From an uncultured Solibacteraceae bacterium (GTDB lineage Bacteria; Acidobacteriota; Terriglobia; Bryobacterales; Bryobacteraceae): a stretch of DNA of 37,247 nt. The position numbers and the translations under genes are program-made. Each line of letters opens with the position of its first letter. Position 1 is the stretch's first letter. The stretch lies in contig CAYZJD010000003.1 of assembly GCA_964478455.1 (NCBI GenBank), positions 1-37,247 of the forward strand, written 5' to 3'. Below the pieces are notes generated by a model. That model saw nothing but the letters and a program-made list of their open reading frames with translations, did no database searches and had not been told where the DNA came from. Below, piece by piece: positions 5,920 through 11,192 of the stretch.

Positions 5920-6267
5920 TTACCTGATGTTTCGAATCGAGGACATGGCCGCGTCGTGGCGCGCCTTCATCACGTTCGACGCCGTCTCGAATGCCCGTGT
6001 CTCCATCTGCATCTGACGCTGTAATTCCAGGAATTGCGAGCTCTCGCCCAGCAATCCGGTGGAGCCGAGCGCTCCCCCGCCGCCGATGAACTTGCCTACC
6101 ACCGAACCGAGCCCCGGAGCGAAGATGTTGGCCGCCCCTCCGGCGACCGCGCCCAGGAACCGCCGGAAACCGCTCGGTTTCTTCGCGTTATCCACGTACT
6201 TCAGGATGTCATCGATGCTGTAATTCGGAGTCTGCGCCGCTCCGAGTCCTCTTAATACCGTCGACAT
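5920..6267 (-). CDS. Gly-rich small protein with needle-protein-like C-terminal helix (SctF-like candidate)
   Basis: 115 aa. Central Gly-zipper segment (GAVAGGAANIFAPGLGSVVGKFIGGGGALGSTGLLG). The C-terminus ETASNVMKARHDAAMSSIRNIR follows the pattern of PrgI/YscF ends (..SN.V K...D....I.N.R, as I recall those sequences). Strong SD AAGGAGAGGAG upstream. Confidence 0.6.
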   Translation of the reverse strand: MSTVLRGLGAAQTPNYSIDDILKYVDNAKKPSGFRRFLGAVAGGAANIFAPGLGSVVGKFIGGGGALGSTGLLGESSQFLELQRQMQMETRAFETASNVMKARHDAAMSSIRNIR

Positions 6268-6316
6268 ATGGACTGAACTCCTCTCCTTAACCCTATTATC
6301 GAGGCCCCGTTACAAT

Positions 6317-6604
6317 TCATTGCTTCTCTTCGACCATTTTGTCGCGGAGGTCACGCAGGTGTCCGATCAGCTCGAGCAGCCGGGCATAGCCGGCCATGGC
6401 CACCTTGGCCCGCTGCTTCTCCTCGTCGGTGCCCGCCCGCTGAATCTGGTCGAGTTGCCGGCAGGTCTTTTCGATTTTCTGAAGCGCGGCCTCGACCTCG
6501 TCGAAGCTCTTCTCAAACTGCGGGAACTTCCGCCAGGCGATGTCCTCGGCGGCCGCCGGCCGCGCCCCGGCGGCGGGATTCTTCGTCACTTTCTCGCCAG
6601 CCAC
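6317..6604 (-). CDS. Small helical-hairpin protein (YscE/SctE-like co-chaperone candidate)
   Basis: 95 aa with a GTG start preceded by AAGGAGAAG. About 25 disordered residues are followed by two long predicted helices split at AGTDEE. Sits immediately upstream of the needle-like gene. Confidence 0.5.
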   Translation of the reverse strand: MAGEKVTKNPAAGARPAAAEDIAWRKFPQFEKSFDEVEAALQKIEKTCRQLDQIQRAGTDEEKQRAKVAMAGYARLLELIGHLRDLRDKMVEEKQ

Positions 6605-6689
6605 GATTGCTTCTCCTTCGCCTTGTTGTCAGACAAGTCGTCCACTCCATTCAGGCCCTCGCCGCGGCGTTGAGCCACGACTGCCAGAA

Positions 6690-6726
6690 GATGTAAAAGA
6701 ACGCCCGGCAGGCGAAAGCGCCTGCC
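6690..6726 (-). terminator. Candidate intrinsic terminator/attenuator after sctV
   Basis: On the minus strand, 20 nt after the sctV stop: GGCAGGCG-CUUU-CGCCUGCC (perfect 8-bp stem, 6707-6726) followed by GGGCGUUCUUUUAC. The U-tract is displaced 5 nt from the stem, so the call is moderate at best. Confidence 0.35.
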
Positions 6727-6746
6727 CCACCTAACGCAACGGTGCC

Positions 6747-9417: not shown

Positions 9418-9505
9418 GCGATGCCGCCCCTCTCAAGAACGCACCGGCGCCGCGGGGGCAATTCCCGCCACGACGCCGGCGCACATAGGCGAGTGACAGA
9501 ACGCA

Positions 9506-10006
9506 TCAGGCCTGTGCCTGCATGCGCTGCACTTCGTTGATGACCACCTCCATGCCATCGAGGATCGCCCGGGCGCGGTTGGCGCCGGGGTCCTCCTCCT
9601 CGGGATCGAGCTCCAGCGCCTTGTCGAACTCCGCCGCGGCCTCTTCGAACTTGCCCTGCCGCAGCAGCACCTCCCCAAGGTTGGCGTGCACAGTCGGGTC
9701 TTCCGGCTTTAGTTCGATCGCCTTGCGAAGGTTGGTGGCCGCTTCGTCGAGTTTCTCCTCGGCCAGCGCGAGCGCACCGAGCCCGGCATAGCCGAAGTAC
9801 GAACGGCTGTCGAGCGCGATGAGCCCCTCGAAGATCGCCCGGGCCTCGTCGTTCCGGCCCTGATCGTAAAGCTGGAAGCCGAGCACGGCCATCGCGTCCA
9901 CCTGGTCCTTGTTGAGGCCGAAGAAGGCGTTCAGTCCACCCTCCCCCCGGACCGCCTTCTCGAGGGCGTCGGGCGCTACCGCTACTGCATTCGGATTCGT
10001 TGCCAT
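9506..10006 (-). CDS. TPR protein, class II T3SS chaperone-like
   Basis: 166 aa, the size and three-TPR layout typical of LcrH/SycD/IpgC-type chaperones (ARAIFEGLIALDSRSYFGYAGLGALALAEEKLDEAATNLRKAIELKPEDPTVHANLGEVLLRQGKFEEAAAEFDKALELDP). Flanked on both sides by Gly-rich genes. Confidence 0.7.
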   Translation of the reverse strand: MATNPNAVAVAPDALEKAVRGEGGLNAFFGLNKDQVDAMAVLGFQLYDQGRNDEARAIFEGLIALDSRSYFGYAGLGALALAEEKLDEAATNLRKAIELKPEDPTVHANLGEVLLRQGKFEEAAAEFDKALELDPEEEDPGANRARAILDGMEVVINEVQRMQAQA

Positions 10007-10024
10007 GGTAGTCCTCCTTCCTCC

Positions 10025-10696
10025 TCAACGGATTGCCGAGATCGCCTTTTGGGCCATCTGGCTCTGCATCTCCATCAGTTTGGAGATGGTGTTGAACATC
10101 ATCTGCGCCTGTTGCATCATCTGCTGCGCCTTCAACTGGTCCGACATGTTCGGGGACTGCGCCAGTTGCGTCGCCTGGTTCATCAGGTTGTCGATCTGGC
10201 CCCAGCCGCCGCCAGCACCACCGACTCCGCCAACGCCGCCACCGACGCCCGGAAAGCTGCCGCCGACTCCGCCCACGCCCGGAAAGCCGCCGCCGCCGAT
10301 GGGAATTTGAGGCTGCATACCACCCAAACCCCCCTGACCGAGCAAGCCACCCAGCTTGCCCAGCAGGTCCTGGATGCCCTGAAGCATGCCGCCCAAGCCC
10401 CGAAGGCCGCCGAGCGGGTTGTTGAAGACGTTGATGTCAATGTTGGTCACGTTGTTGTTGTTGGTGATGCTCGTCGGTCTCGGCGGGCAACGATGCGCGC
10501 GACGCTTTCGCTTCCGGCCGAACAGCTTCTTGAAGGCGCCGCCGATCTTACCGAAGACGCCGAGCGGGTCCATGAGTTTTCCCAAGCCCCCGAGCCCTCC
10601 GGCGCCGCCCACGGCGCTGCCGAGGATGTTACCCACGACGCCGCCGAGGGGGCCTGAGCCCAAGATACTCGAGGCCAATCCAGCAATTGGCAACAT
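10025..10696 (-). CDS. Gly-rich (harpin-like) Gly-zipper protein with needle/axial-like C-terminal helix, paralog C (putative T3SS substrate)
   Basis: 223 aa. N-terminus IAGLASSILGSGPLGGVVGNILGSAVGGAGG, motif HRCPPRP, and internal FPGVGG repeats. C-terminus QQMMQQAQMMFNTISKLMEMQSQMAQKAISAIR. Strong SD AAAGGAGGAA upstream. Confidence 0.65.
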   Translation of the reverse strand: MLPIAGLASSILGSGPLGGVVGNILGSAVGGAGGLGGLGKLMDPLGVFGKIGGAFKKLFGRKRKRRAHRCPPRPTSITNNNNVTNIDINVFNNPLGGLRGLGGMLQGIQDLLGKLGGLLGQGGLGGMQPQIPIGGGGFPGVGGVGGSFPGVGGGVGGVGGAGGGWGQIDNLMNQATQLAQSPNMSDQLKAQQMMQQAQMMFNTISKLMEMQSQMAQKAISAIR

Positions 10697-10784
10697 GCTG
10701 TTGTGTTCCTCCTTTTCTTCTCGCCGACTGATCTGAAGTTCGGTTCAACTTGCGAACCTGTTCCTTTTATCGGGACAGGACGCG

Positions 10785-11192
10785 TCAGAGTTGCGTTTCG
10801 CCGCGCGTCAACTTCACGCGCGCCGCTTCCAGTTGCAGTTCCAGCCGCGAGGCGTGCTGCCTCGCCTGCCGGCTTCTCAGAACCCTCACGTCCGCCGCCG
10901 CCTCGTCCAACCGGCCGAGGCCCAACCGAGCTTCCGCGCGGCGCGCTCGGGCCTCGACGTCGCCGTCATCCAGCGCCAACGCCTGATCCGCCTGCTCCAG
11001 CGCCCGCTGCTGTTCGCCAAGGGCCAAGTAGAGAGCCGCCAGCGCAGTGCGGCAGTAACGGTTTTCCGGGTCCACTACCACCAGTCCTTCGAAAATCGCC
11101 GCCGCCTCGCGATAACATCCCTGCAAATAGAGCGAGTGCGCCCGCTCGGCCACGACGAAGACATCCTCCTCCGTCCAACCCGCGATCGGCAT
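10785..11192 (-). CDS. TPR protein, T3SS chaperone-like (start trimmed to internal ATG)
   Basis: The ORF track gives 10785-11378, but its first 62 residues are Gly/Arg junk overlapping the upstream gene. The ATG at 11190-11192 lies 2 nt after that gene's TAG. It yields 135 aa of TPR (AERAHSLYLQGCYREAAAIFEGLVVVDPENRYCRTALAALYLALGEQQRALEQADQAL). Confidence 0.65.
   Translation of the reverse strand: MPIAGWTEEDVFVVAERAHSLYLQGCYREAAAIFEGLVVVDPENRYCRTALAALYLALGEQQRALEQADQALALDDGDVEARARRAEARLGLGRLDEAAADVRVLRSRQARQHASRLELQLEAARVKLTRGETQL

Follow-up and report, generated by a model that had tools for sequence, protein, structure and literature searches.

Here we analyze a 37,247-nucleotide stretch of DNA from an uncultured Solibacteraceae bacterium of the Acidobacteriota (contig CAYZJD010000003.1 of assembly GCA_964478455.1; 63% GC), referred to below in its full length as the window. 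It carries a cluster of type III secretion system (T3SS) genes, all of them on the minus strand, that spans 22.5 to 4.5 kb (window positions 4532-22527). Three open reading frames (ORFs) of this cluster encode proteins of 115, 155, and 223 amino acids (aa) that an earlier reading of the letters alone (the sequence-only reading) did not recognize; every named relative is indeed labeled “hypothetical protein”, and neither of the two families to which they belong has a Pfam or NCBIfam assignment. We consider it moderately likely that the three are divergent members of the SctF/axial superfamily, serving a non-flagellar acidobacterial T3SS without a nearby secretin, with the 115-aa protein as the needle and the 223- and 155-aa proteins as distal subunits. 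The three genes and their parts are as follows.

5920-6267, minus strand: 115-aa protein in the SctF position, with a short N-terminal helix, a Gly/Ala-rich helix-PG-helix hairpin, and a putative C-terminal needle-type helix
6046-6168, minus strand: Gly/Ala-rich hydrophobic hairpin of the 115-aa protein (residues 34-74, FRRFLGAVAGGAANIFAPGLGSVVGKFIGGGGALGSTGLLG), with invariant P51 and G54 and near-invariant G52
5923-6042, minus strand: putative C-terminal needle-type helix of the 115-aa protein (residues 76-115), placed by AlphaFold2 (AF2), hhalign, and a gapless SctF alignment
8950-9417, minus strand: 155-aa paralog (152 aa from the ATG at 9408) with the N-terminal segment of the 223-aa protein, HKCPPRP at 9214-9234, a divergent C-terminal hairpin at 8953-9129, and 4 Cys
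10025-10696, minus strand: 223-aa Gly-rich protein (24% Gly), with a hydrophobic GxxxG segment at the N-terminus, a basic patch and HRCPPRP, repeats of FPGVGG, and at the C-terminus a SctF-like hairpin
10028-10207, minus strand: helix-turn-helix needle-like domain of the 223-aa protein (residues 164-223), from AF2 and profile matches
10475-10495, minus strand: HRCPPRP motif of the 223-aa protein (residues 68-74), aligning with a PxPF motif of its relatives

All three ORFs are present where they had been placed, and the same genes are called in an independent ENA assembly, in which the 155-aa product is 152 aa long, starting from the ATG at 9408. Strong Shine-Dalgarno sites precede the 115- and 223-aa genes; the 155-aa gene has a weak ribosome-binding site and a GTG start or a nearby ATG. 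The C-terminal helix that the sequence-only reading had described as shared by the three proteins was recovered in two ways. An hhalign comparison of the alignment of the 115-aa family (A1, 26 sequences) with that of the 223/155 family (A2) gave a probability of 95% (E = 2.4e-8) for the 40 C-terminal residues, with the two C-termini in register. In addition, a hidden Markov model (HMM) was built from the last 66 residues of 47 representatives of the 223 family, with the window proteins left out, and run over the 395 stop-to-stop ORFs of the window. It retrieved the 223-aa protein (1e-28), the 155-aa protein (1.2e-5), the 115-aa protein (7.6e-5), and a SctI-like 182-aa protein (2.5e-4), with the next ORF at E = 0.76. 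These comparisons indicate that the helix is homologous among the three proteins, far above chance. Since the HMM also retrieves the SctI-like protein, the window holds four axial-type proteins rather than three.

Several independent weak signals, from the PDB, Pfam, alignment, and AF2, agree in linking this helix to SctF needle proteins. Both families have their best PDB profile match in one needle fragment of 43 residues, 7y6c_F (A1, E = 0.095; hairpin of the 223 family, E = 0.0033), which is printed under a co-chaperone name and whose other PDB relatives are all needle proteins (BsaL, YscF, MxiH, and PscF), aligned over their C-terminal halves. When Pfam was scanned member by member, T3SS_needle_F was the commonest match, found for 3/26 sequences in the 115 family (E = 0.0014 at best) and for 10/123 in the 223 family (1.8e-5 at best); the weaker matches behind it (Flg_bbr_C, T3SS_basalb_I, EspA, and FlgK_D1) are all to axial families. 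Relatives of canonical length (71-79 aa) align to nearly the whole T3SS_needle_F model. Against PrgI, one of six authentic SctF sequences that we used as reference (PrgI verified against the PDB; MxiH, YscF, and AscF taken from annotated plasmids), hhalign sets residues 81-115 of the 115-aa protein on residues 46-80 without a gap and flush with the C-terminus. The eight identities are Q, S, N, K, D, I, N, and R, and seven of them (all but N98) are invariant or near-invariant in A1, where Q83, K101, and H104 are invariant and S97, D105, I111, and N113 near-invariant. The helix is likewise in register with MxiH and YscF, and the 115-aa protein carries the C-terminal signature of SctF (of the type Q...SN..K..KD....IIQNFR), ending at its last residue. 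For the 223-aa protein, AF2 predicts helices at 164-179 and 184-222 joined by a turn (pLDDT >90), which is the SctF topology, with the remainder poorly predicted. Altogether, these results suggest, weakly but consistently and with no curated threshold reached, that the C-terminal helix belongs to the SctF/axial superfamily, and they support the axial-protein-like C-termini proposed from the letters alone.

The position of the 115-aa gene points in the same direction. Its neighbors, together with the other small genes considered below, are the following.

5437-5835, minus strand: 132-aa all-TPR protein in the sctG (needle chaperone) position, matching TPR Pfam models and, in NCBIfam, LcrH_SycD (1.4e-10) and CdsG (1.8e-8)
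6317-6604, minus strand: 95-aa helical protein in the sctE (needle co-chaperone) position, assigned by position only
9506-10006, minus strand: 166-aa three-TPR class-II-chaperone-like protein, matching NCBIfam LcrH_SycD (5e-17) and SctY (2e-14)
10785-11192, minus strand: 135-aa TPR protein whose partner, from synteny, is the upstream 140-aa gene
11195-11617, minus strand: 140-aa conserved protein (alignment A6) in a YscX-like position beside a small TPR gene

The 115-aa protein has 47 homologs, all of them hypothetical proteins; metagenome-assembled genomes (MAGs) of Acidobacteriota are a source of its homologs. A scan with A1 over one genome per GTDB species yielded 55 loci, all from MAGs, which we annotated with the window proteins as queries. 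The hosts include many Acidobacteriota (Bryobacterales, Terriglobia, and Blastocatellia), Gemmatimonadota, CSSED10-310, and a few others; no Myxococcota genome was returned by this pattern scan. Core sct genes are present in 40 of the 55 loci, in 38/54 the 115-type gene is directly followed by a TPR gene, and a homolog of the 95-aa protein, with its conserved motifs WRxFPxFE and CRxL, was detected directly upstream in 21/51. The acidobacterial order is sctQRSTU, 140-aa, TPR, zero to three pairs of 223-type plus TPR, sctV, 95-aa, 115-aa, TPR, 120-aa, and FHA-TM (an FHA domain with a transmembrane helix). In CSSED10-310 and related MAGs (L033, L043, L046-48, and L056) it is sctL, 115-type, TPR, sctI, sctJ, and sctN, to be compared with yscE-F-G of pCD1. 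This canonical sctF-G-(H)-I-J order in distant phyla is the strongest argument that the 115-aa protein is the equivalent of SctF and the 132-aa TPR protein SctG-like. The 115-aa protein is thus the product of a single-copy, conserved gene in the SctF position and the best candidate for the needle subunit. At five further loci (L029-L031, L034, and L039; Blastocatellia and MAGs labeled Clostridia), the 115-type gene lies directly upstream of a sctU/flhB-family gene with no other sct gene within 10 kb, and T3SS genes appear scattered.

The 223- and 155-aa proteins are built differently. Their identity is 34% across 111 residues (BLASTP E = 0.048, which is marginal and owes something to HxCPPRP). 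Besides the H(K/R)CPPRP motif, they have in common a GLASS(L/I)L...G.VVG.I(V/L)GSAVGG segment and their C-terminal domain; by these features they are paralogs along their length. The 155-aa gene is absent from the syntenic locus L001 and has almost no relatives (one falls in a separate 50% cluster, P0071), and the protein is a lineage-restricted extra copy. Members of A2 are 155-390 aa long and share a four-part architecture: an N-terminal segment of approximately LGGPxGxxVGxxL, a PxPF motif, a hypervariable Gly-rich center, and a constant hairpin. A globular insert of >150 aa occupies the center in P0050 and L001. The H(K/R)CPPRP motif, which the sequence-only reading had correctly noted in the two larger proteins, aligns with the conserved PxPF-type motif. 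In translocators, a PxLxxP motif binds the chaperone, and HRCPPRP/PxPF may be a candidate for such a linear chaperone-binding motif. In Terriglobia loci, the same slot holds Gly-rich proteins of ~200 aa with the same N-terminal style, PSPFGLG, FPG repeats, and a more divergent C-terminal helix. Of the harpin-like FPGVGG repeats described earlier, the repeats themselves stand (FPGVGG occurs twice in the 223-aa protein, and orthologs have FPG repeats), but the harpin homology does not: we rejected it, since no harpin model of Pfam or NCBIfam matches and Cys is present (one in the 223-aa protein, four in the 155-aa protein).

The hairpin is the constant part of this family. An exhaustive HMM search with the 62-aa hairpin against 1.8 billion representatives found it in 121 representative clusters, in proteins of 40-628 aa, ending at most 3 residues from the C-terminus in ~110/121; tblastn of the hairpin against plasmids returned nothing. 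At L003, L006, and L012, the last 180-186 nucleotides are at least 95% identical between paralogs, while the preceding 150 nucleotides are 46-75% identical. The C-termini of paralogs within one locus are identical at the protein level, the rest of the genes differing in sequence and length, and the near-identical hairpin was seen in 3/6 paralog pairs. Because the hairpin DNA is nearly identical while the DNA upstream diverges, gene conversion is confined to the hairpin: in these three loci, it homogenizes exactly the SctF-like part. Conserved termini around a variable center are also the organization of flagellins, EspA, and Bsp22 (PMC12607632). A constant assembly module joined to variable exposed parts suggests a common docking partner for the hairpin, the needle being the simplest choice.

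The sequence-only reading had given each of the three proteins a TPR chaperone gene of its own, in an arrangement like that of needle subunits or translocators and their chaperones. The likeness in arrangement holds, as the gene order mirrors both yscE-F-G and the pairs of translocators with class II chaperones, and all three small neighbors are indeed all-TPR, with Pfam TPR models covering the proteins. They look like T3SS chaperones in that their best T3SS-specific NCBIfam matches are LcrH/SycD, CdsG, and SctY, although the cut-offs are missed throughout (for the 166-aa protein, LcrH_SycD 61.9 vs 104.8 bits and SctY 54 vs 70; for the 132-aa protein, CdsG 34.7 vs 170). A sequence search of the three against the PDB was swamped by designed and eukaryotic TPRs and was uninformative on chaperone class. 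The one-to-one pairing, however, does not hold. In 17/24 cases, a 223-type gene is directly followed by a TPR gene of the 9506-10006 type, and the pair duplicates as a unit, with three tandem pairs in L010 and two in L006. The 140-aa gene, in turn, abuts the 10785-11192 TPR gene in the window (stop codon 11195-11193, start codon 11192-11190), and nearly every acidobacterial locus that spans the region has both immediately behind sctU (in L012, the TPR gene alone was detected). Co-duplication on the one side and abutment on the other make the pairing of 10025-10696 with 10785-11192 probably wrong; the 223-aa protein probably pairs with 9506-10006 instead. The 155-aa gene has no TPR gene of its own, and the 166-aa TPR protein likely serves the 223-aa protein and probably the 155-aa protein as well. 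The position of the 140-aa/TPR pair resembles that of YscX/YscY, without detectable sequence similarity. Neither the 95-aa nor the 140-aa protein has a PDB, Pfam, or NCBIfam match, and their family profiles found nothing significant in the PDB, with YscE and YscX, respectively, not retrieved.

The rest of the cluster encodes a SctI-like protein, SctJ, SctL, SctN, SctO, a SctP/FliK-like protein, a SctQ-FHA fusion, SctR, SctT, a LysM-like ORF, SctU, and SctV. The needle-type candidate genes are interleaved with sctV, downstream of sctU, and a small protein with an FHA domain and a transmembrane helix closes the cluster. Three of these genes bear directly on the argument.

6747-8912, minus strand: SctV, 781.5 bits to NCBIfam hrcV (above the cut-off of 692), with FlhA below its cut-off
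11628-12689, minus strand: SctU, 356.7 bits to NCBIfam SctU (cut-off 358)
21979-22527, minus strand: SctI-like inner-rod candidate of 182 aa, directly upstream of sctJ and the fourth axial-type protein of the window

SctV, SctJ, SctL, and SctN reach the NCBIfam cut-offs of non-flagellar models. Since SctV lies above the hrcV cut-off but below that of FlhA, we assign the cluster to the non-flagellar T3SSs on the strength of these profiles. The SctI-like protein matches Pfam T3SS_basalb_I (1.6e-7) and T3SS_needle_F (2.6e-4). Neither a secretin nor a full-length SctD was found in the window. We also ran phmmer with YscC, YscD, YscE, YscF, and YscG of pCD1 against all ORFs of the window and 56 loci, which gave no secretin and no match for YscE, YscF, or YscG; the YscD query gave weak FHA matches only. 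No YscC-like secretin turned up in the window or in any of the 56 loci with 10-kb flanks, in a single-sequence search (phmmer --max; best E ~9) that distant secretins could escape.

An FHA domain, of the type of the cytoplasmic domain of SctD, is present twice, at the N-terminus of SctQ (16124-17689) and in a separate 197-aa protein (4532-5125) that has a single C-terminal transmembrane helix and resembles SctD minus its periplasmic domains. A 280-aa ORF at 12780-13622, between sctT and sctU, has a weak LysM-like match (NCBIfam SafA LysM, 9e-7) and homologs at the same place in L010, L025, L028, and L054; in Myxococcota T3SSs, FliO has been reported to carry LysM domains (PMC12248157). Three tandem DUF4384-domain genes (2108-4489) follow immediately downstream of the cluster on the same strand. 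Beside the sctI end, at 22636-26019, lie a sigma-70-family gene and a gene for an 841-aa Ser/Thr kinase fused to an FGE-sulfatase domain, which may be regulators; a large Ser/Thr kinase is likewise found near the cluster in L001.

The Gly-rich segments were described in the sequence-only reading as a common Gly-zipper N-terminus. For the 155- and 223-aa proteins this is borne out, if marginally, by their similarity to each other and by GxxxG chains at residues 17-29 and 18-34, although the Gly-zipper label calls for caution. The segment of the 115-aa protein, by contrast, is internal (34-74) and not significantly similar to the other two (independent E-value 1.9). Small-xxx-small periodicity is modestly above that of composition-matched shuffles (0.57 vs 0.34 and 0.79 vs 0.64), and pure G-chains are not enriched in the 115 family. 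Among the Gly-zipper models of Pfam (PF13488, PF05433, and PF13441), matches were obtained for the 155-aa protein only, at E = 0.04-0.06 and ~14 bits against cut-offs of 24-29. Maximum Kyte-Doolittle hydropathy (KD19) is 1.3-1.55 (223-aa protein, 1.37; 155-aa protein, 1.55), below that of ordinary transmembrane helices. Such hydropathy does not support true transmembrane helices, and with their small size the proteins differ from hydrophobic translocators of 300-600 aa with one or two bona fide transmembrane helices; a Sec signal or lipoprotein reading was rejected because there is no charged n-region and no cleavage motif. For residues 34-74 (6046-6168), the A1 profile also gave weak PDB matches (E = 0.3-0.9) to the fusion-peptide region of pneumovirus and paramyxovirus F proteins. 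This likeness consists of a basic pair followed by a Gly/Ala-rich hydrophobic stretch and is probably compositional, though compatible with a membrane-active segment.

The homology of the C-terminal helices, their link to SctF, the gene order, the modular architecture, and the gene conversion are observed; secretion, polymerization, chaperone-substrate matching, and membrane activity are what we infer. The results can be assembled into the following scheme. The host system would be a deep-branching non-flagellar T3SS of Acidobacteriota. The 115-aa protein would polymerize as the needle, its C-terminal helix lining the channel and its Gly/Ala-rich hydrophobic hairpin replacing the polar, outward-facing N-terminal helix of other needles. 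The 95-aa helical and 132-aa TPR proteins would keep it monomeric in the cytoplasm, as YscE/YscG do for YscF. The 223- and 155-aa proteins would be exported later and join the distal end, where they serve as tip, filament, or translocator-like components, through the ~62-aa hairpin as a docking or polymerization module. The N-terminal GGPxGxxVG segment and Gly-rich center of the 223 family would then be the exposed, target-facing part, and the 166-aa class-II-like TPR protein would keep both proteins export-competent, possibly by way of PxPF/CPPRP. The sequence-only reading had suggested that all three may be combined filament/pore subunits or harpin-like secreted substrates. Their needle-like C-termini agree with an axial role, but the three proteins are not equivalent, and only the last ~62 residues of the 223/155 family are needle-like.

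The Gly-rich segments might, as we only infer, insert into membranes. In solved needles, the N-terminal half of SctF faces outward, so that a greasy outer face would result from the hairpin of the 115-aa protein together with the hydrophobic N-termini of the 223-type proteins. Given that no YscC-like secretin was found, it is attractive, albeit speculative, to suppose that the axial tube embeds directly in lipid by this hydrophobic face, and so could pass through the outer membrane of its own cell, or through the envelope of a prey, with neither a secretin nor a classical translocon. We regard this extension as rather improbable.

A number of observations weigh against assigning the three proteins to needle and distal subunits. 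No tested member reaches the 29.4-bit threshold of T3SS_needle_F (PF09392), the relatives attaining 24 bits at best, and the window's 115-, 155-, and 223-aa proteins do not match this model at all. Profile alignment against the six authentic SctF sequences is weak (115 family, E = 0.0038 and a probability of 9%; 223 family, E = 0.092), and a Foldseek search of the PDB with the AF2 model of the 223-aa protein gave nothing at E <= 0.001, needle and rod chains appearing only at E ~6; helical hairpins discriminate poorly in such a comparison. Canonical needles are shorter than the 115-aa protein, whose N-terminal half is moreover hydrophobic instead of polar. AF2 confidence is low in that half (helices 33-49 and 53-62), and with a mean pLDDT of 59 for the whole protein, the C-terminal helix (71-114, pLDDT ~80-88) is its only confident part, compared with a whole confident hairpin in the last 62 aa of the 223-aa protein. 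The putative co-chaperone and YscX-like genes (95 and 140 aa) have, at the level of sequence, no detectable similarity to YscE or YscX, and no secretin was found by which a needle would leave the cell. Furthermore, the C-terminal module (37-40 aa) of the 115 type occurs outside T3SS loci in 11/55 loci, in Sec-signal or unrelated proteins. In nine Gemmatimonadota loci (L035-L038, L041, L044, L045, L050, and L053), it ends proteins of 157-257 aa that bear a Sec signal, are 60-70% identical over the module, and have MacB-type transporters as neighbors. The module also ends a 1146-aa outer-membrane-barrel/CarboxypepD_reg protein of a Chitinophagaceae MAG and a Planctomycetaceae protein (L049 and L052). 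The only hit of tblastn with the 115-aa protein against plasmids was a Spirosoma hypothetical protein (WP_231780188.1, 138 aa; L063, 7701-8117), which likewise ends in the module and has no T3SS genes nearby. Widespread homologs outside T3SS loci with another assigned function had been named beforehand as a result that would count against the proposal; the occurrence of the module outside such loci touches on this in part, but no function is assigned to the proteins that carry it.

Consequently, the helix is not exclusive to needles, which leaves room for the view that it is a general self-associating coiled coil and that the proteins are structural or regulatory components of the apparatus, anchored in membrane or envelope by their Gly-rich segments instead of being secreted. 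The Sec-signal and outer-membrane-barrel proteins that end in the module fit this view, as do the sub-threshold nature of every SctF link and the resemblance of the Gly-rich segments to Pfam Gly-zippers at E ~0.05. We nevertheless find it quite improbable for the window, where the three proteins lack a Sec signal and a positively charged N-terminus, TPR genes adjoin in a sctE-F-G-like order, the conserved positions coincide with those of SctF, and the same HMM matches the SctI-like protein. A different possibility, which we judge unlikely but to be taken seriously, concerns the larger proteins alone: the 223- and 155-aa proteins may be secreted, non-polymerizing substrates (harpin-like helpers, translocators, or effectors) whose hairpin docks only transiently on the needle tip or the chaperone and builds no filament. 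Their high Gly content, FPG repeats, and hydrophobic N-terminal segment would suit such a role, as would the pairing with a class-II-like TPR protein, as for translocators, and the strong variability in sequence and length. Against this, they show no similarity to harpin or translocator families, their hydropathy lies below transmembrane values, and the hairpin is a complete SctF-like unit, homogenized in half of the paralog pairs compared, within a variable-centered architecture typical of axial polymers (PMC12607632).

The roles could also be swapped, with 223-type proteins as the major filament (needle or pilus) subunits. The 115-aa protein would then play a minor part as an adaptor or rod-like junction that links SctI to the filament. 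The 223-type hairpin does link to needle-like proteins of canonical length more strongly than the 115 family does: alignment A4 matches proteins of 71-90 aa at 1e-9 to 1e-5, the better of the two best T3SS_needle_F values is that of the 223 family, and multi-copy, variable subunits are typical of major filament proteins. However, it is the 115-type gene that occupies the sctF slot beside sctG-like and sctI/sctJ genes in distant phyla, and some loci have no 223-type gene at the HMM level, and we regard this swap as improbable. Lastly, we give almost no credence to the idea that any of the ORFs, the orphan 155-aa one above all, is a spurious gene. For the 155-aa ORF, its near lack of relatives, its start and ribosome-binding site, and its absence from L001 might raise such a suspicion; yet it fills the whole gap between sctV and the TPR gene on the coding strand, is called in another assembly, has the relative P0071, shares its N-terminal segment and CPPRP with the 223-aa protein, and is matched by an HMM that excludes it. 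We therefore rejected the 155-aa ORF as an artefact on the last of these points and on its independent gene call.

The assignment to needle and distal subunits can be set beside known systems. Compared with SctF (PrgI, MxiH, YscF, and SsaG/EscF) and its SctE/SctG co-chaperones (YscE/YscG, PscE/PscG, and CdsE/CdsG), the C-terminal helix of the 115-aa protein agrees in its conserved positions when anchored on the final residue (Q...SN..K...D.....I.N.R), and its single-copy, conserved gene likewise sits between genes for a small helical and a small TPR protein, followed by sctI-sctJ in some phyla. The differences are that SctF has 70-90 aa against 115 and a polar N-terminal helix with a PxxP turn against a Gly/Ala-rich hydrophobic helix-PG-helix. 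The Pfam model is not reached here, the putative co-chaperones lack similarity to YscE/YscG, and the phyla (Acidobacteriota, CSSED10-310, and others) and secretin-less context are unusual. The 223 family, for its part, recalls EspA of enteropathogenic Escherichia coli, SseB of Salmonella pathogenicity island 2, and Bsp22 of Bordetella, which are ~150-400 aa long with conserved helical termini and a hypervariable, insertion-tolerant center (PMC12607632), and like these it would presumably be added distally onto the needle. It differs from them in having a compact SctF-like hairpin at its extreme C-terminus instead of a long N/C coiled coil, a hydrophobic Gly-rich N-terminus, a class-II TPR rather than a CesAB-type chaperone, and up to three paralogs per locus; the EspA family of Pfam (PF03433) matches none of the window proteins and only 2/123 relatives (E = 0.0078).

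With the hydrophobic translocators and their chaperones (YopB/YopD-SycD/LcrH, IpaB/IpaC-IpgC, and PopB/PopD-PcrH), the window shares a gene for a substrate with a hydrophobic segment beside a three-TPR gene of ~130-170 aa, and YopD-type proteins likewise end in an amphipathic helix. The window proteins are, however, much smaller and Gly-rich, with hydropathy below that of transmembrane helices, no sequence similarity, and LcrH_SycD matches below cut-off. Harpins (HrpN, HrpZ, and Hpa1) are similarly Gly-rich, encoded in T3SS clusters, and helical at their ends, but they show no sequence similarity, are free of Cys where the window proteins have 1 and 4, lack a SctF-like hairpin, and belong to systems of plant pathogens.

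To our knowledge, work on non-flagellar T3SSs has been limited almost entirely to Proteobacteria and Chlamydiae, and our literature search turned up neither an account of these proteins nor one of T3SS needles in Acidobacteriota. Abby and Rocha (2012) recorded such systems only in Chlamydiae, Proteobacteria, and Verrucomicrobia (PMC3459982), and basal Myxococcus-type systems are described as lacking secretin, needle, tip, and translocon (PMC3459982). In gene content, our loci also resemble the “needleless” T3SS* of Myxococcus (mxan_2434-2464) and the “Myxo” clade of non-flagellar T3SSs. These share with our loci the export apparatus, SctJ, SctI, the ATPase, and the sorting platform; the lack of an annotated secretin, SctF, tip, and translocon; a FliO-like gene and a LysM-like domain; and, in L001/L002, adjacent Tad minor-pilin genes (PMC3459982, PMC12075869, PMC12248157). 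The Myxo systems are reported to have no needle-type proteins, whereas the loci described here encode them. In L001/L002 (Acidobacteria MAG RI_231), the TadG/TadE-like minor pilin genes lie directly after the T3SS cluster (12070-14266 and 1372-1794), and a FliO-family gene stands between sctQ and sctR; this recalls the functional coupling of Tad(Kil) and T3SS* in Myxococcus xanthus (PMC12075869).

If the three proteins are what we propose, two features would be new. For T3SS axial proteins, it is a constant SctF-like hairpin, homogenized between paralogs in some loci and combined with a variable exposed part; for a needle candidate, it is the hydrophobic insert. More broadly, a widespread and wholly unannotated set of needle-type proteins occurs in the secretin-less T3SSs of Acidobacteriota, CSSED10-310, and other phyla, where the axial parts supposedly missing may just be too divergent for current models. 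The genes described here are concrete candidates for what such systems build and deliver, and they bear on how the injectisome evolved from the flagellum. Should the tube indeed embed directly in the membrane, the “needleless” T3SS* of soil predators may not be needleless, and a pre-secretin stage of injectisome evolution may still be alive in several phyla.

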